Below are positions 1 to 11,483 of a DNA stretch of 64,000 bases, in pieces; positions within the stretch are counted from its first letter, which is position 1; the number at the start of each line of letters is the position of its first letter. The DNA comes from Planctomycetaceae bacterium UBA7805 (GTDB lineage: Bacteria > Planctomycetota > Planctomycetia > Pirellulales > UBA7805). The stretch covers positions 10,569-74,568 of the forward strand of contig DLCF01000054.1 in NCBI GenBank assembly GCA_002480485.1. The letters run 5' to 3'. The position numbers and the translations under genes were made by a program. The notes below the pieces were generated by a model. It was given only the letters and a program-made list of their open reading frames with translations. It had not been told where the DNA came from and did no database searches.

Positions 1-71
1 GCTAAGAATGGGGTGTCGTTAATCGGCATTTTGCTTTTTTGTCGAGAATAACCGATAAAAAGACTAAAAAG

Positions 72-130
72 CTGCCCTTTTTTCAAGCGTTTGACGCATA
101 TAACGTTGCAGCACGGAACACATTTGGTCC
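72..130 (+). promoter_or_regulatory. Conserved upstream element, copy A (CTGCCC-N15-GACGCATATA...); candidate promoter/leader of the small paralog gene at 162
   Basis: Aligns at nucleotide level with 2925..2982, roughly three quarters identical by hand alignment, with identical CTGCCC-to-GACGCATATA spacing. The two copies sit in different reading frames relative to the downstream ATG, so the conservation is not coding. Confidence 0.4.
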
Positions 131-161
131 CGTCCAACCAACATGCGTAAGGGAGAGTAAA

Positions 162-563
162 ATGAGCATTACCGCTGACAATTCCTGGGATACCCGAGAC
201 GGTTTTTCGATGCCTCGCGACACGAGACCAATTTGTGTTGAAAACGAGTGCCAAGCTAGCATTCTGGGAGCCGAGCAGCATGGACCAGGGCTTCCGAAAG
301 GCAGTGGATCGAGTTCCGGGGAAAATGCCAGTGTTGGCGGGCTGGGCAGCGTTAATCGTGATGACGGTGGCGTTGCCAACGATACGGCTTCCTGGAATCG
401 TGTCATCGAAATGTGGTTGCAGTGGAGTTCGGCCTATGAACAGCTTTCAGGAAAGCTTTTCGAGGACGGTGAGAATGCTCAAAATCTGGAAGCGTTACTC
501 GATGAGGTAGACCAACTCCGATTAGAGGCGGTTGAATTGAGCGAGGGACTTCTAAAAAACTAA
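162..563 (+). CDS. Small hypothetical protein, paralog A of 3034..3432 (shared C-terminal ~55-aa helical domain)
   Basis: ORF track 39..563 starts at TTG. The first ATG is at 162, with GGGAGAG 5 nt upstream. C-terminal SWNRVIEMWLQWSSAYEQ...LRLEAVELSEGLL aligns with DWNEAIMLWLSWNSTYEK...LRKQAIELSQGLL of the 3034 ORF. Confidence 0.55.
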   Translation: MSITADNSWDTRDGFSMPRDTRPICVENECQASILGAEQHGPGLPKGSGSSSGENASVGGLGSVNRDDGGVANDTASWNRVIEMWLQWSSAYEQLSGKLFEDGENAQNLEALLDEVDQLRLEAVELSEGLLKN

Positions 564-692: not shown

Positions 693-1013
693 ATGAAAAT
701 CGCCGAAAAAATGGGGGCTCCGATGCAGCAAACAACTTGGCCCATATGTCGAGATCGTGAAACGGTAACTAGTCCGAGGGATAGGGACGGCATTCTCTCC
801 TCCGCGGAGGAACTTGCCGAGCAAATCAAGCGAAAAATTCGGCTTGTCACGCAGGGTCGTGTGCGGAATCTGGATGTCTGTCTCACTGGGACGCACGTGG
901 TCATTGAAGGATTCTGTTCGTCCTTCCACCCCTTTCAGCTAGCTCAACACGCGGCGATGGAGGCAACCGATGATCTAATGGTTGACAACCAAATCGACGT
1001 CGGGCTGAGTTAG
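693..1013 (+). CDS. BON-like domain protein
   Basis: ATG start with GGGTGAGGG upstream. C-terminal half (VRNLDVCLTGTHVVIEGFCSSFHPFQLAQHAAMEATDDLMVDNQIDV) follows the BON pattern: strand-strand, G-x-V/C-x-S, helix, then V-x-N-x-I-x-V. Confidence 0.45.
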   Translation: MKIAEKMGAPMQQTTWPICRDRETVTSPRDRDGILSSAEELAEQIKRKIRLVTQGRVRNLDVCLTGTHVVIEGFCSSFHPFQLAQHAAMEATDDLMVDNQIDVGLS

Positions 1014-1090: not shown

Positions 1091-2188
1091 TCACCGAAAT
1101 CGGATAGAGCGAATCACGTGGCGGATGTCGGTGTTCAACTCCTTTGCCGAAGCATAGCGATTCTCCGGATCCGTCTCGAGACAACGCATTAAGATCGCAG
1201 TCAGTTCCGGATCAAGATCCTCGCGGTGATGTTCTGGAGGAGTTATTTCTCCACTTTGCATCCTTTTGAGCAGTGCGTATCGCGAACCGGAAGTGTCGAT
1301 GGGTGATTGCCTGGTGAGTAATCGATACAGTATCAATCCCATACTGTAGATGTCGGTTGAGGTGCCGATTTTTTGCTGGTCTCCGACAGCTTGCTCCGGC
1401 GCCATGAACTCAAGGGTTCCGATGATGTCACCCTCCATGGTAATGCTCGCCTCTTTCATAACTCCCTCCATAGCTTTGGCTAAGCCAAAATCAAGCACAT
1501 AGGGATGACCCGTCGCGGAAACCAGAATGTTAGAGGGCTTCAAATCACGGTGAATGATCGAACGCTCATGTGCGTGTGCCAGCGCACTGCAAACGATGGA
1601 AAAGAGCCGCAAGATAGCCTCATCATGCAAGCCCCGATCACGAGCAAAAATATCAAGTCGTTTGCCTTGAATCAGCTGAAGTGTGTAGTAGTAAATGTCC
1701 CCATCTTTCCCCGATTTATAAATGGTGGCTATGTTTGGATGGTTGAGACTAGCGGCCAGTTTGATCTCTCGCTCAAATCGTGTGACCGCATCTTCGGAGG
1801 AAAAAGCGGTCAAGTTATGTACTTTAATTGCAACTTCCTCGTTGTCGACCAAGTCTGTGGCTCTCCAGACTTGGCTGACCCCCCCCTGACCGATCAGCTC
1901 TGTGAGATCGTAACCAGTGATTACCGGAGCAGTGACTTTTCTGCGTCCCGGTTCATCTTCTAAGTCCTTCAATCGCTCCTCGGCGCGTTGTGCGGTCACT
2001 GATCGTTTGGGATTGATTTCATCCTCCAAACCCGGCATGCGATCTTGGAGCAGAAGCGTCTGCACCTCCTTGATCAACTCCAAATCTTTCCCACACAAAG
2101 CGGCCAACTTTTTTTCTTGAATTTCAATATCCAAGTCACAGACTTGAAGAAACAGGTCCGTAATCTTTTGGTGTTTATCACGATTCAT
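1091..2188 (-). CDS. Soluble Ser/Thr protein kinase, translationally coupled to the upstream ECF sigma factor
   Basis: Hanks motifs are present: GQGGVSQVW, VAIKV, HRDLKPSNILV, DFGLAK, APE. There is no TM segment or sensor domain. A ~95-aa N-terminal helical region (ITDLFLQVCDLDIEIQEKKLAALCGKDLELIKEVQTLLLQ) precedes the catalytic domain. The ATG overlaps the sigma stop codon (ATGA, 2185..2188). Confidence 0.9.
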   Translation of the reverse strand: MNRDKHQKITDLFLQVCDLDIEIQEKKLAALCGKDLELIKEVQTLLLQDRMPGLEDEINPKRSVTAQRAEERLKDLEDEPGRRKVTAPVITGYDLTELIGQGGVSQVWRATDLVDNEEVAIKVHNLTAFSSEDAVTRFEREIKLAASLNHPNIATIYKSGKDGDIYYYTLQLIQGKRLDIFARDRGLHDEAILRLFSIVCSALAHAHERSIIHRDLKPSNILVSATGHPYVLDFGLAKAMEGVMKEASITMEGDIIGTLEFMAPEQAVGDQQKIGTSTDIYSMGLILYRLLTRQSPIDTSGSRYALLKRMQSGEITPPEHHREDLDPELTAILMRCLETDPENRYASAKELNTDIRHVIRSIRFR

Positions 2189-2769
2189 GTAGTCGTTGTC
2201 TCATCAAGATAACGTTTAAGCCAAGCCCGTGCCAAACGCCAATCGCCCTTCACCGTCCGAGGCGATACCCCGAGTGCAGCCGCTGTCTCGTCGATCGTCA
2301 TGCCGGAAAAATACCGCATCTCGACTATTTTTGCCTGCCGATCATTTAATTTGGCCAGGGCATTGAGTCCCTCATCGAGCGCGATGACATCCACGCGCTG
2401 ATTACTGTCAGCGGCAGGTATGTGATTGATCAGCAGGTCAACCCGGTGCCGGTCACCACCTCGTTTAACTCGGTTGCGATGTCGGGCGTGATCAACCAGC
2501 AGTCTTCGCATTGCGGTCGCGGCCAGCGCAAGAAAATGAGTTCGGTCCGTACAATTGATCTGAGCCTGATCCATCAATTTCAAAAAAGCCTCATGCACGA
2601 CATCGGTCGTCTGCCATTCGTGCCCCGGCAATTCGCCCCGCAGTTGTCGGGATGCCACGGCTTTGAGTTCAGCATAGAGGTGGTTGAGCAGAGCCTCGGC
2701 CGCTGAACCTTCTAACTTGCGACAGGCTTTGAGCAGTTGGATGGTTTGGCCTTGAAGTTCGTCGTTCAT
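2185..2769 (-). CDS. ECF-type RNA polymerase sigma factor (Sigma70_ECF / TIGR02999-like)
   Basis: Region 2 is DVVHEAFLKL and the region 4 HTH is MTIDETAAALGVSPRTVKGDWRLARAWL. The track start at 2829 has no SD, whereas ATG 2769 (MNDELQGQTIQLL...) has GGAG about 8 nt upstream. Confidence 0.85.
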   Translation of the reverse strand: MNDELQGQTIQLLKACRKLEGSAAEALLNHLYAELKAVASRQLRGELPGHEWQTTDVVHEAFLKLMDQAQINCTDRTHFLALAATAMRRLLVDHARHRNRVKRGGDRHRVDLLINHIPAADSNQRVDVIALDEGLNALAKLNDRQAKIVEMRYFSGMTIDETAAALGVSPRTVKGDWRLARAWLKRYLDETTTT

Positions 2770-2924
2770 CGAAGTGCTCCGTCGCGATTTACCGACGCCG
2801 CTTTTGCCGCTCAGGACCGCGACCTGCATGGCAGCAAGTTGAGAAAAAACAAAACTGGTAACACTTAGATATTAAGTAGTTACGACGATTTTATCATGTG
2901 GGACAAAAAAAATTATTAAATTTC

Positions 2925-2982
2925 CTGCCCATTTTCGCGCTTTTCGACGCATATACAGTTGAAGAGGACAGAATTTAGGGCC
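2925..2982 (+). promoter_or_regulatory. Conserved upstream element, copy B; candidate promoter/leader of paralog B, in the divergent region shared with the sigma-kinase operon
   Basis: CTGCCC at 2925..2930 and GACGCATATA at 2946..2955, the same 15-nt spacing as copy A (72..77 and 93..102). An in-frame stop (TGA at 3018) separates it from the ATG at 3034. Confidence 0.4.
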
Positions 2983-3033
2983 TTCTGGGCCCCGCGGAAT
3001 AAAGAAGACACCAAAAAGTGAAGGAGAAGCGAA

Positions 3034-3432
3034 ATGAAAGTTGCCTCCCGAAATCGAAACCAGCGTTCTCGTCATTCATCACGCGGTCGCAGTCGTCGGG
3101 CGGGCAATTCTCAACGGGTTTCTGGTATTCACAACCGACGCGATAAGCGATTCTTCTGTGACAAGCCCCGTCCCGCGATAGAGGACGCAATGGAAATGTC
3201 GGCCCAGACTGGCGAAAGCAGCCAGCAGGCCCCGGCACTCCAGGGCGACCGGCCGGACTGGAATGAGGCCATCATGCTCTGGCTCAGTTGGAACAGCACC
3301 TACGAGAAAGCCACAGCAAAGATGTATAAAGGCGGAAATAAAGAGAAGCTGCGGGCGATGGTCAGTGAGATGGAAAACCTGCGAAAGCAGGCCATTGAAT
3401 TGAGCCAAGGGCTGCTTGGGTGCACCAATTAG
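3034..3432 (+). CDS. Small hypothetical protein, paralog B of 162..563; Arg-rich N-terminus plus the conserved C-terminal domain
   Basis: ATG with strong SD GAAGGAG 8 nt upstream. An alternative internal start is at 3190 (MEMSAQ, AGAGGA upstream). The C-terminal 55 aa are about 40% identical to paralog A by hand alignment. Confidence 0.55.
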   Translation: MKVASRNRNQRSRHSSRGRSRRAGNSQRVSGIHNRRDKRFFCDKPRPAIEDAMEMSAQTGESSQQAPALQGDRPDWNEAIMLWLSWNSTYEKATAKMYKGGNKEKLRAMVSEMENLRKQAIELSQGLLGCTN

Positions 3433-3475: not shown

Positions 3476-3504
3476 CTGCCGATCGTGCTGATCGGCAGTT
3501 TTTT
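3476..3504 (+). terminator. Rho-independent terminator after paralog B
   Basis: CTGCCGATC (3476..3484), loop GTGCT, GATCGGCAG (3490..3498), followed by TTTTTT (3499..3504). It lies 44 nt after the stop codon. Confidence 0.6.
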
Positions 3505-3564: not shown

Positions 3565-5496
3565 CTATATTTCGCCCGCTCCATCCCATCGCACGAACCC
3601 CTCAATCGCCGCGTATTCAGCCAATCCGAGAGCGTCATACATGTGGGCAGTTTCAAGATTTCGCTGCTCAGCGCGTTGCCAAAATTCCCGTATATCAACG
3701 CCCGGAAAGAGAGCGCGATCTTTTTGCGACTCGTGTTTAAATATTGCATGTCGCTTCTGCCCCACTTCCTTGGGGCTCAATGGGACAGCCATTTCAATAT
3801 CGTCAGGACTCCACTCTTGCCAGGCTCCACGATATAGCCAGACCTGCGTGGTTTGATACCAAGACTCATCCTGTAAGCGTTTGCATGCGTTGAGGACCGC
3901 TTTCAAACAAGTGCGATGCGTCCCATGTGGATCAGAAAGGTCACCAGCAGCGTATATCTGATGTGGTTTGACCTGTTGAAGCAGGTCCATCGTCAACGCA
4001 ACGTCTTCTTCTGAGAGCGGCTTTTTCCGCACTCTGCCAGTTTCATAAAATGGGAGGTCCTGGAAATGTAAACGCTCATTGGGGATGCCACACGTCCGCC
4101 CCGCAGCACGGGCCTCCGTGCGTCGTATTAGGCCTTTGATACCCTGTATTTCCTGGCTATCGACTTGCCCTGGTTTTTTGTGCCGAAGAAATTCGTCGAC
4201 GTGTGCTTCAAGCGCGGCCGTTTTCTTAGGCGCAATTTCAAACAGGTGGTTAAATTCCGAAGCGTACTCTGCGAAGCGGATGGCATCTTCGTCGAACACT
4301 GCGATGTTTCCAGAAGTTTGGTAGGAAACGTGAACTTCATGCCCCTGTTCCACTAGGCGAATGAGGGTGCCCCCCATCGAGATGACGTCATCATCGGGAT
4401 GTGGCGAGAAGATTAAGATGCGTTTTGGAAAGATGTCGTCGTATTCTTGCGGACGATCACCCGGTTTTTTCTGTTCCGCCGGTTTCCCGCCGGGCCACCC
4501 CGTAATCGTGCCCTGAAGATGACGGAAGACAGCAAGATTGATGTCGTAGGCCATACCATGTTCGGCCAGAAGATCTTGAAGGCCCTCTTCGTTGTAGTCC
4601 TCTTCGGTCAATTTCAAGATCGGCTTATTCAATTTTTTTGCTAGCCAGATGGTTGCCTTCCGAATCTTTTTTTCATCCCATTGAACGGGGCCGATTCGCC
4701 ACGGTGACTGACATCGAGTGAGCTGCTCGGCGGCCGCATCATCGAGCATGAACGTCGCACTCGGATGCTGCTGTAAAAAACTCGCAGCCACACTCGGTGT
4801 GATTGGGCCTTCCGCAGCTTCAGCAATAATCGGTGCTTTGTGTTCTCCAAATGCAAGCAGGAATATTCGGCGAGCGTCTAAAATGGTGCCCACACCCATG
4901 GTGATCGCTTTCCGAGGGACATTCTCTTCACCAAAAAAATCACTCGCTGCGTCGCGTCGCGTGATTCGATCAAGCGTTATCAGCCGAGTGCGTGTTGTTT
5001 TTCCTGAACCCGGCTCATTGAATCCGATATGTCCGGTTCGCCCAATGCCAAGGATCTGTATGTCAATCCCGCCAGCGTCATCAATCGCTTTCTCATATTT
5101 TTGACACGCAGCATACACGTCGGTCTCTGCTAAGGTGCCGTCTGGAATGTGAATATTAGTCCGATCAATGTCGACGCGATCAAAAAGATGTTCGTTCATG
5201 AAACGAACATAGCTCTGAAGCTCGTTGGGTTGCATGGGGAAGTATTCATCGAGGTTGAAGGTTACGACGTTCGCAAGAGACAGCCCCTCCTCGTGGTGCA
5301 TGCGAACCAATTCGTTGTAGATCTCGACTGGCGTGCTTCCTGTCGCAAGGCCCAGGACGCACATTTTGCCCACCCTGGCTCGTTCGTCAATCAAGTCACG
5401 GATGGCTCTCGCCACCGCGGCACTTGCCTCGTCCGCGTGATCGAAAATTTCGCAGGGGATTTTTTCCAGGTTGTCATATTTTTTTGGGGTGCTCAC
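3565..5496 (-). CDS. nagB: Glucosamine-6-phosphate deaminase (NagB-like) fused to an LmbE/PIG-L-type N-acetylglucosaminyl deacetylase domain
   Basis: N-terminal half has LGLATGSTP, FNLDEY and GIGRTGHIGFNEPGS. C-terminal half has FSPHPDDDVISMGG. The track start at 5634 would overlap the upstream gene by 128 nt. GTG 5496 lies 10 nt after that gene's stop and keeps the N-terminus (STPKKYDNLEKIPCEIF). Confidence 0.8.
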   Translation of the reverse strand: MSTPKKYDNLEKIPCEIFDHADEASAAVARAIRDLIDERARVGKMCVLGLATGSTPVEIYNELVRMHHEEGLSLANVVTFNLDEYFPMQPNELQSYVRFMNEHLFDRVDIDRTNIHIPDGTLAETDVYAACQKYEKAIDDAGGIDIQILGIGRTGHIGFNEPGSGKTTRTRLITLDRITRRDAASDFFGEENVPRKAITMGVGTILDARRIFLLAFGEHKAPIIAEAAEGPITPSVAASFLQQHPSATFMLDDAAAEQLTRCQSPWRIGPVQWDEKKIRKATIWLAKKLNKPILKLTEEDYNEEGLQDLLAEHGMAYDINLAVFRHLQGTITGWPGGKPAEQKKPGDRPQEYDDIFPKRILIFSPHPDDDVISMGGTLIRLVEQGHEVHVSYQTSGNIAVFDEDAIRFAEYASEFNHLFEIAPKKTAALEAHVDEFLRHKKPGQVDSQEIQGIKGLIRRTEARAAGRTCGIPNERLHFQDLPFYETGRVRKKPLSEEDVALTMDLLQQVKPHQIYAAGDLSDPHGTHRTCLKAVLNACKRLQDESWYQTTQVWLYRGAWQEWSPDDIEMAVPLSPKEVGQKRHAIFKHESQKDRALFPGVDIREFWQRAEQRNLETAHMYDALGLAEYAAIEGFVRWDGAGEI

Positions 5497-5506
5497 TCTA
5501 ATCTCT

Positions 5507-6184
5507 CTACTCCTTACCGCTCTGCGTTGGTCTGAGTGTGTGAATTCGAATGTTTCGAAAAGCCACGCGGTCTCCATGGCCCAAAAAGCCGAGATGCCCC
5601 GTTGTATTTTTGAGTCCCGGATGGGGTTTTTCATCGACAGTATGTCCGCTTTCCAACACCTGATCCAAATCTGTATTAAGAATCGAGTGCCCGTTAAGAA
5701 TCACTTCAATGTGCGTTCCATCGCAACGGACCTCTTGGGTGTTCCATTCTCCTACCGGTTTCAGGAAGCCACGTTTGGCCGGGACAACTCCATAGATAGA
5801 TCCGTGTGTTTGATAGGGTTTCAGATTGGGCCAACGGTCAGAGCTATTGTCCAGGATTTGTAATTCAATCGCGTTGTAGGCGGCATCGCCTTTTAAAGGG
5901 GCGCGAATCGCTAAGCCATTGTTTGCCCCCGGAGTCAGCCTGAATTCAAATTTGAAAATAAAGTTGTCAAATTTTTTTTCGGTCAACAGCTTACCGCCTC
6001 GGCCTTTTGGCAAGACGATGCATCCGTTCTCTACGAGATACTGGTCGGTGGCCCCAATCCAGCCGTCAAGATCTTTTCCGTTGAAAAGGGGTGTGAAGTC
6101 CTCCTCGTCTGCACGGACATGCGTGTAACCGAAAGCCAAGACGAACATGGTAATTAGCGGCAGATGTAAATATCGTTTTGACAT
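5507..6184 (-). CDS. Secreted DUF1080 (3-keto-disaccharide hydrolase-like, PF06439-type) protein
   Basis: Signal peptide MSKRYLHLPLITMFVLAFG. Also FTPLFNGKDLDGW near the N-terminus and GHLGFLGHGDRVAFRNIRI at the C-terminus. Confidence 0.8.
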   Translation of the reverse strand: MSKRYLHLPLITMFVLAFGYTHVRADEEDFTPLFNGKDLDGWIGATDQYLVENGCIVLPKGRGGKLLTEKKFDNFIFKFEFRLTPGANNGLAIRAPLKGDAAYNAIELQILDNSSDRWPNLKPYQTHGSIYGVVPAKRGFLKPVGEWNTQEVRCDGTHIEVILNGHSILNTDLDQVLESGHTVDEKPHPGLKNTTGHLGFLGHGDRVAFRNIRIHTLRPTQSGKE

Positions 6185-10159: not shown

Positions 10160-10499
10160 TGACGTGATTCCGCTGAGCGAGGGGAAAATTTGGTTACAAC
10201 CCGCCTGCAACTTACTCACCGATCCGGCAGCAGACCGCCACTTGGTTTCGAAACGTCATCGCCGCGGCTCTACGCAGGAATTCCAAATTTATGCCGTTAA
10301 GCGGCCTATTACAGCAGTATTGGTAAGCGGATTCAAGTGGTACGCGGAGTTTTACGGAGCGGTTAAAATTTCGAAATCTGAACAATCGCGTGGTGAAGCA
10401 GTAATTTTCGACTCGGATTGTGTCATAATCTAGATTTATTTGCCCGCGATACTTGAATGCGATCTTAGGCATCGAGTGGTAAAGCAAGGCAACATCGCT

Positions 10500-11483
10500 A
10501 TGGCGACCATCACACATTATCAAGTCGGTGATGTACTCGGTGTTGGCACCGTAGGCACCGTTTACCAAGCGAAGGATCGGATAACGGGACGTGAGGTGGC
10601 AATAAAAATTCTGTTGCCGCAAATTCTCGACGATTCACATATCGGGCGTCGTTTCCATCGCGAAATGTCAATTTTGGAAAAGTTAAATCACCCACATATT
10701 GTGCACTATCTCACTGGAGGCGTTGCGGGTGGAAGGCCATATTATGTGATGGAGTTGGTGAATGCAGGATCACTGAGAGATGAATTAACAATTCACGGTC
10801 ATTTGCCCTGGCAGCAGGCATGTCGTTTCGGGATTCAAATTTGCTCGGCACTACAGCACGCACACAATCATGGAATTATTCATCGGGATTTGAAGCCCTC
10901 CAATCTCTTTATGGACGAATCTGGAAACTTGAAATTAGGAGACTTCGGGATTGCACGGGACACGCACCAAGTTGATTTGACCGATGCGGGCCTGACGGTC
11001 GGAACCTATGCCTACATGTCCCCAGAACAGATCTGTGCCGACACAAATGTTTCGGATAAAACCGATCTCTATGCCCTGGGATGCCTGCTCTACGAGATAG
11101 TCACCGGCTATCAGCCATTCGCCGGAGCTACCTTTGCTAGGATTTTTGATCAACATCTGAAAAGTGATCCGCCCAGAATTCGATACACGGTTCCGGATGC
11201 TCCCGAAGAACTTGAGGAGCTGATCTTACAACTAATGGCGAAGCATCCGGCACAAAGACCCTTTAACGCTCGGTATGTGCAGGGATTTCTGCAGAATCTG
11301 CTGGAGCAGCAAAAAGATGATGGTGGGACAACCGAACAGAGGCAATTTTCAGCATCTGGTGGCGCTCGACCGGCTGGCATATCGTCTTACGCCGGTTACT
11401 CGTGGGGCGCGCTCATCGCATTAGTTATGCTGATCGGCTTCATTGTGACTGCGGTCTATTTGGCCCAATATGTAATTTTCTAA
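10500..11483 (+). CDS. Ser/Thr protein kinase with C-terminal membrane anchor
   Basis: GVGTVGTVYQA, VAIKIL, HRDLKPSNLF, DFGIAR, SPE. C-terminal TM segment is WGALIALVMLIGFIVTAVYLAQYVIF. ATG at 10500 is chosen because the track start at 10440 adds 20 non-kinase residues. Confidence 0.85.
   Translation: MATITHYQVGDVLGVGTVGTVYQAKDRITGREVAIKILLPQILDDSHIGRRFHREMSILEKLNHPHIVHYLTGGVAGGRPYYVMELVNAGSLRDELTIHGHLPWQQACRFGIQICSALQHAHNHGIIHRDLKPSNLFMDESGNLKLGDFGIARDTHQVDLTDAGLTVGTYAYMSPEQICADTNVSDKTDLYALGCLLYEIVTGYQPFAGATFARIFDQHLKSDPPRIRYTVPDAPEELEELILQLMAKHPAQRPFNARYVQGFLQNLLEQQKDDGGTTEQRQFSASGGARPAGISSYAGYSWGALIALVMLIGFIVTAVYLAQYVIF

Follow-up and report, generated by a model that had tools for sequence, protein, structure and literature searches.

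A two-block motif conserved upstream of twin small-protein genes is a candidate target promoter of the adjacent kinase-linked ECF sigma factor in a Planctomycete lineage

Two paralogous small genes, here called parA and parB (working names; neither encodes a partition protein), flank a divergent operon for an ECF sigma factor and a Ser/Thr kinase (2769..1091, - strand) in the 64-kb stretch of DNA that we analyzed (the window), and each of them is preceded by a copy of the same two-block motif. This two-copy motif is real and far beyond chance. It is probably a promoter for an alternative sigma factor of some kind, and we lean, with slightly more belief than doubt, towards an ECF-type promoter that is read by the adjacent sigma factor. 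The preliminary description of the locus had offered three readings, namely the recognition sequence of the adjacent ECF sigma factor, an operator, or a conserved 5′ leader. We favor the first of these because of the invariant blocks, the fixed gap of 15 nt with its variable, T-rich spacer, the upstream A-tract, the orientation of the motif and its conservation together with the cassette. The sigma factor appears linked to the motif by synteny within one narrow lineage, and shared ancestry, not function, could explain part of their co-occurrence.

A search for CTGCCC-N15-GACGCATATA returned exactly two matches in the 64 kb, at 72-102 (copy A) and 2925-2955 (copy B), both on the + strand and without a mismatch, and the pattern search found no third copy in the window even when up to 3 mismatches were allowed. 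The 3′ block GACGCATATA on its own is also found only at these two window sites. By our own arithmetic, a second exact copy of the 16 specified bases is expected ∼3e-5 times by chance in 64 kb read on both strands (128 kb). A position weight matrix (PWM) built from orthologous instances scored 39-40 bits at copies A and B, while the maximum in shuffled windows was 15.5 bits; no other site in the window reached 12 bits on either strand, and hence weaker copies were not found.

The preliminary description had reported a longer, non-coding element of ∼58 nt at 72-130 and 2925-2982, composed of CTGCCC, 15 nt, GACGCATATA, 2 nt, GTTG.AG and ATTT..GG.CC and ending 31 nt (copy A) and 51 nt (copy B) before the ATG codons at 162 and 3034. 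Both copies do read this way, and the distances are correct. However, only the ∼30 nt from TGCCC to GACGCATATA are conserved between the paralogs and also across genomes. The similarity at GTTG-AG and ATTT-GG-CC is lost in the orthologs of parA, where sequence conservation after the motif resumes only at GGGAGAGTAAAATG. The functional unit is therefore ∼30 nt plus the upstream A-tract, not 58 nt, and the 3′ half of the longer element is the start of the leader, which is conserved among orthologs only. The non-coding nature of the region holds up, as the leaders from the motif to the Shine-Dalgarno sequence (SD) or ATG in orthologs measure 53-74 nt with length differences that are not multiples of 3; an ORF starting from TTG 39 does cross copy A.

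The shorter unit is intergenic, oriented toward the gene, and ends 59 nt (copy A) and 78 nt (copy B) before the ATG. In copy A, an A-rich tract at 55..70 in an UP-element-like position, evident in the sequence and in an anchored profile of 20 instances, precedes the 5′ block TGCCC (73..77), the proposed -35, which continues as nTTT. The spacer of exactly 15 nt (78..92) is T-rich and variable in sequence, and the 3′ block GACGCATATA (93..102), with its invariant GACGC, would provide the -10 and the discriminator. Copy B has the same layout, with an A8 tract (2905..2912), TGCCC as proposed -35 (2926..2930), a 15-nt spacer ending in TTTC (2931..2945) and GACGCATATA (2946..2955), which reads CGAC together with the preceding C. 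All of these elements are on the + strand.

We then asked how far the motif extends beyond the window. A scan of GTDB species genomes yielded 19 loci, 7 of which (L001-L007, all from marine or environmental MAGs) carry the same cassette in the order parA, orf106, the kinase and sigma factor genes on the opposite strand, parB and a conserved nagB-like neighbor. Identities within these seven loci are 87-99% for the sigma factor, 63-87% for the kinase, 47-83% for parB and 36-60% for parA. TGCCC-N15-GACGC is present in all cases in which the contig includes the region before parA or parB, and its spacing is exact in 20/20 distinct upstream sequences, taken from the window, L001-L007 and metagenome contigs. 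The preliminary description had regarded orthologous paralogs without the motif as an argument against a function, and the motif is kept at every parA or parB ortholog whose upstream region was recovered. When the 20 instances were anchored without gaps, TGCCC carried 2 bits per position (2.0 bits, invariant in 20/20 unique instances), the next base carried no information, and TTT followed. The middle of the spacer is variable and its end reads TTT[CT]; GACGC again reaches 2 bits at each position, and [AT]T[ATC]TA comes next, with GACGCATTCC as the single exception. The A-tract forms an information peak 13-20 nt upstream of TGCCC. Everything else in the alignment of parA upstream regions diverges, with indels, down to the SD. 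In the parB intergenic regions, the alignment shows further conservation in a block spanning 2856-2895, in the initial ∼20 nt of the leader (among close orthologs only), in a GC hairpin and in the SD.

A metagenome scan with TGCCC-N12-TT-N-GACGCATATA gave 39 matches, 8 of which are orthologs of the cassette. As for the genes that follow the motif in relatives, which the preliminary description had proposed to record, all 8 matches from the lineage precede parA or parB. The other 31 matches were rejected as targets; they have no match to a cassette protein, lie on contigs of 36-73% GC and were treated as chance. A third target gene was not found in the window, the fetched loci L001-L019 or the metagenome matches, and no PWM site of at least 12 bits was present elsewhere in any other fetched Planctomycete locus. 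The motif and the sigma/kinase cassette are strictly conserved together: each locus with the cassette also has the motif. The divergence of the flanks, with indels and with parA down to 36% identity, while the blocks and the sigma factor stay, supports the reading as a promoter. It also bears on the possibility that the motif has no function and was left over from the gene duplication, or that its two copies are recombination-site repeats on either side of the sigma-kinase segment. The two direct copies do lie 2.85 kb apart and bracket parA, orf106 and the kinase and sigma factor genes, but every cassette locus retains both of them despite the divergence of spacers, flanks and even proteins, two short blocks at a fixed spacing are the signature of protein recognition and not of neutral decay, and the cassette contains no recombinase. 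We consider such an origin very improbable.

Just before copy A, a terminator-like hairpin and T-run (9..43, + strand; stem 9-33, tail CTTTTTTGTC) end the upstream transcription unit. Downstream of copy A follow the parA 5′ leader (103..161, +), which is not conserved in sequence except for the SD GGGAGAG at 151-157, and parA itself (162..563, +), encoding a 133-aa protein. At the other end of the cassette, copy B is followed by the parB 5′ leader (2956..3033, +) with the GC hairpin at 2978-2992 and the SD AGGAG at 3022-3026, by parB (3034..3432, +), encoding a 132-aa protein, and by an intrinsic terminator read from the sequence (3476..3504, +; CTGCCGATC-GTGCT-GATCGGCAG, then TTTTTT), whose ortholog was detected in L002. 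The asymmetric blocks always face the gene, copy A comes after a terminator and parB ends in one, which supports the reading as a promoter.

Between the two paralogs, orf106 (693..1013, +) follows parA and encodes a conserved protein of 106 aa with unknown function. A separate conserved sequence, TTTGTCC-N16-GGCAAT, lies upstream of this gene at ∼637-668 of the window, where the copy reads TTTGTGTCC-N16-GGCAAT. The 16-nt spacing of this sequence is exact in six orthologous loci (L001, L002, L003, L005, L031 and L045) and the sequence is absent from L006; it may be a separate promoter of orf106. Orthologs have a hairpin in front of it, GGCGAGC-aaggaaNta-GCTCGCC, of which the window shows a degenerate version. 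On the opposite strand are the genes for the Ser/Thr protein kinase (1091..2188, -; 365 aa, kinase domain at residues 93-349, PF00069 at 1.5e-47) and the ECF-type sigma factor (2185..2769, -; PF07638/TIGR02999), which has its true start at the ATG at 2769. The kinase start overlaps the stop codon of the sigma factor gene (ATGA), giving translational coupling. A conserved intergenic block (2856..2895, ..ATATTAAGTAGTTACGACGATTTTA..) lies between the sigma factor start and copy B in all cassette loci. On the - strand it contains a sigma-70-like nTGnnA-N17-TAATAT in just 3/8 loci, and it may, with weak indications, be a (constitutive) promoter of the sigma-kinase operon. A classical ECF promoter (GGAAC...CGTC) for this operon on the - strand was considered and rejected, as the CGTC at ∼2881 is not conserved (orthologs read CGCC) and has no properly spaced -35. 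Adjoining parB is a gene for 689 aa (3565..5634, -) that owes the label nagB-like to its sequence alone; its synteny with the cassette extends to L002-L007, where identity is 78-92%. A second homolog of Ser/Thr kinases is located at 10491-11138 (+); tblastn aligned it with the cassette kinase over 223 residues at 33% identity.

We compared the motif with characterized promoter classes. The preliminary description had stated that it does not match the ECF pattern; this is correct for the -35, which lacks AAC, but TGCCCnTTT, a putative -10 with CGAC or GACG and a spacing of 14-17 nt all parallel ECF promoters. ECF promoters of Bacillus subtilis have the -35 region tGAAACnTTTt, in which a T-tract comes after one unspecified base, their -10 is CGAC (sigX), CGTA (sigW) or CGTC, the spacers measure 14-17 nt, and the promoters stay close to consensus (PMC5758882). 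Like the promoters of sigmaW, sigmaX, sigmaV and sigmaM, the motif consists of two blocks that adhere closely to a consensus, lying at a fixed distance around a free spacer in 20/20 instances, and it has a T-tract after one free base (TGCCCnTTT here, GAAACnTTT there). Its putative -10 would contain CG: the parB copies read CGACGC, with CGAC of the sigX type, and the parA copies read TGACGC, and the spacer is 14, 15 or 17 nt long depending on the tetramer that is chosen as -10. As expected for an ECF promoter, the motif is intergenic, co-oriented with the gene and close upstream of it. The differences are the invariant TGCCC in place of an AAC-containing -35, a 3′ block of 10 conserved bases, and the lack of a copy before the sigma factor gene, where ECF systems usually, but not always, have one; the sigma factor named here as reader is a candidate. 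Promoters of sigma-28 (FliA) have the sequence TAAA-N15-GCCGATAA. They share with the motif the 15-nt gap and a long -10 that is rich in GC at its head and in AT at its tail, but they differ in the sequences of both blocks, and the motif is found at parA and parB only, with no flagellar genes.

The earlier remark that the motif has no good sigma-70 -35 was borne out by a consensus scan, which finds no sigma-70 site at either copy. The details also led us to reject a sigma-70 promoter. A gap of 19 nt separates the best hexamers, the -10-like one ends in A in 19/20 instances in place of the T that sigma-70 requires, and the invariant GACGC and CCC are without a role in any sigma-70 promoter. A third paralog type, found in L008-L019 and never adjoining the sigma/kinase pair, has TTGnnn-N17-[AC]ATA[AC]T upstream in 12/12 loci, followed by a long leader. 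The motif is unlike this sigma-70-type promoter, which further supports its reading as the promoter of an alternative sigma factor. The leaders of the third paralog type span roughly 150-250 nt and contain conserved blocks, with no Rfam match; examples of this promoter and leader are located at ∼3750-4000 in L010 and ∼3830 in L013. The leaders of L008, L010-L012 and L018 have TTGCCC...GGGCAA flanking the SD, which could form an anti-SD pairing.

These data also bear on an operator or activator site that overlaps a weak housekeeping promoter, with (C/T)TGCCC as a poor -35 and C[AT]T[AT]TA as a poor -10, 19 nt apart as in MerR-type promoters. In L006 and L007 the 5′ block does read TTGCCC, resembling a sigma-70 -35, the 3′ block exceeds the usual length of an ECF -10, and a 19-nt spacer served by a DNA-twisting regulator has a precedent in CueR (PMC5758882). 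However, the A at the end of the -10-like sequence and the invariant GACGC and CCC are as unexplained by such a promoter as by any other sigma-70 promoter, and the clear sigma-70-type promoters of this lineage have a 17-nt spacer. GACGC neither repeats TGCCC nor is its reverse complement, so the dyad or direct-repeat symmetry of a dimeric operator is missing. Moreover, the conserved cassette is without a transcription factor gene; no DNA-binding regulator other than the sigma factor was found in it. We therefore regard an operator as unlikely, although we rank it first among the rival explanations, followed in order by a different sigma factor, a leader RNA and the duplication remnant.

According to another alternative, transcription starts further upstream and the motif is a cis-acting RNA element of the 5′ leader, either protein-binding or small and structured. 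A stem, CUUUUCGAC/GUUGAAGAG, can indeed form in copy B (fold z-score of -3.95), and close orthologs show good conservation of the parB leader. However, copy A has no such fold (z-score of +0.86) and is located directly after the terminator-like hairpin, there is no complementarity between TGCCC and GACGC, and Rfam gave 0 matches in the window and 10 related loci. In the parB orthologs, substitutions are one-sided and break pairs of the stem, with 0 compensatory pairs in the consensus fold of the parB leader. Each of the parA leaders forms some hairpin, and these differ in place and sequence, with no common structure. The proposed conserved 5′ leader is thus unsupported for the shared core, with copy A unfolded, the stems broken and Rfam empty, and an RNA element is improbable. 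Within the parB leader, the GC hairpin at 2978-2992 (GGGCCU...GGGCCC) is kept in orthologs only via changes from G-C to G-U, and it may be a 5′ stabilizing stem-loop; GTTGAAGAGGACAG in the same leader is conserved among close orthologs only.

The candidate reader of the motif has a match to PF07638 with 2.9e-49 and scores 196.8 bits against TIGR02999, for which the cutoff is 126. Its orthologs form a tight group with at least 86% identity, and the next relatives have at most 56%. Region 2.2 of the sigma factor reads QTTDVVHEAF where canonical sigma factors have DAED, and the threonine T55 is invariant in 10 aligned relatives, comprising orthologs and relatives with 50% identity. Sigma factors of the group ECF43 have a comparable motif, with the consensus QTTA and the variants STTA in EcfP and QATE in EcfK (PMC13147305; PMC8103513). 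Their neighboring Hanks kinase phosphorylates the threonine and thereby supplies the negative charge for binding of core RNA polymerase (PMC13147305; PMC8999054; PMC8103513). Like EcfP-PknT of Vibrio parahaemolyticus and EcfK-PknS of Xanthomonas citri, the pair described here consists of a sigma factor with sigma2 and sigma4 only and an adjoining Hanks-type Ser/Thr kinase, and DAED is replaced by a Thr-containing, mostly uncharged motif, QTTD, which keeps the final D like the E in QATE of EcfK. In contrast to the ECF43 systems, the kinase is short and without a sensor domain, and the candidate regulon comprises two small paralogs instead of polymyxin-resistance or T6SS genes. Assignment of the sigma factor to one of the Planctomycete kinase-linked groups ECF59, ECF61, ECF62 and ECF217 is equally possible as to ECF43. 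The 365-aa kinase consists of an N-terminal extension of ∼90 residues and the kinase domain, and a transmembrane or sensor domain would not fit in. A scan of the four other cassette proteins, a set that does not include the nagB-like neighbor, revealed no anti-sigma domain.

A PWM scan of both strands of the cassette loci found no motif copy at the sigma operon, suggesting that the sigma factor, unlike most ECF sigma factors, is not autoregulated. The FecI-like groups ECF05-10 and HrpL of ECF32 likewise have no copy of the target promoter at their own gene and have adjacent targets; they depend on a FecR-type anti-sigma factor or on transcription of the sigma factor gene, whereas control here would presumably be by phosphorylation. 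The standard method of promoter prediction searches upstream of the sigma factor gene and fails for sigma factors that are not autoregulated (PMC7826278). Three relatives of the sigma factor with ∼50% identity (L020-L022), each beside a kinase, have no TGCCC-N13-17-GACG in the intergenic DNA, and the region 4.2 helix of these relatives is nearly identical to that of the cassette sigma factor. The missing autoregulatory copy, the -35 without AAC and the 10-nt 3′ block count against an ECF-type promoter read by the adjacent sigma factor, and the motif-less relatives may do so as well.

The same observations leave some room for a promoter that is read by a different alternative sigma factor encoded elsewhere, the adjacency being historical or otherwise regulatory, for example if the small proteins act on the kinase. 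The promoter-like anatomy fits this equally well, the sigma operon is without the motif, and Planctomycetes have many TIGR02999 paralogs (4775 matches at E ≤ 1e-20). However, the genes with the motif adjoin this sigma factor ortholog wherever the flanks were recovered, the motif is present on both sides of the operon, and it does not precede other genes in the window, in L001-L019 or in the metagenome matches. We give a different sigma factor a low probability, a little below that of the operator.

We therefore prefer the adjacent sigma factor as reader and propose the following model. The motif would be a bipartite ECF promoter made of the A-tract, the -35-like TGCCC with nTTT, the fixed spacer and the -10-like (C/T)GACGCAT(A)TA, and transcription would start a few bases downstream of the -10-like block. 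Each copy would drive one monocistronic small-protein gene, parA or parB. The reader would be the adjacent TIGR02999 sigma factor, in which the uncharged Thr motif QTTD replaces DAED as in ECF43, and which would have to be phosphorylated by the co-transcribed Ser/Thr kinase before it could bind core RNA polymerase.

The proteins encoded by the two putative target genes align with each other only over the C-terminal 58 residues, with 43% identity. Neither has a match in Pfam or NCBIfam, and the family is confined to Planctomycetota. The N-terminal half of the parB protein is predicted to be disordered; it is basic and holds the family motif GIHNRRDKRF. In the AlphaFold model, the C-terminal half is a confident but generic helical hairpin (pLDDT of ∼90). 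A profile search of the PDB gave insignificant matches only (E of about 0.3), and Foldseek against the PDB returned nothing with E < 0.7. A profile search with the C-terminal domain identified 233 cluster representatives, and 0/10 of those tested have a Pfam domain.

Planctomycetes have very large numbers of kinase-linked ECF sigma factors, and the papers that we consulted described no target promoters for them. The locus offers a highly constrained candidate promoter along with two candidate target genes. We tentatively suggest, at somewhat less than even confidence, that TGCCCnTTT-N11-(C/T)GACGCATATA is the first defined target promoter of a Planctomycete kinase-activated ECF sigma factor, with an AAC-less -35 and a regulon consisting of the two flanking paralogs. 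The kinase, the sigma factor and the twin outputs may form a closed module, with possible feedback from the outputs to the sensor-less kinase or to the sigma factor. The mechanism itself, that of a conventional alternative sigma factor in a narrow lineage of uncultured marine bacteria, would not be surprising in principle, and this limits the significance of the finding. If true, it would provide an orthogonal sigma/promoter pair with an unusual -35, useful as a testable pair for an understudied class of ECF sigma factors, and a pointer to the function of an uncharacterized family of small proteins.
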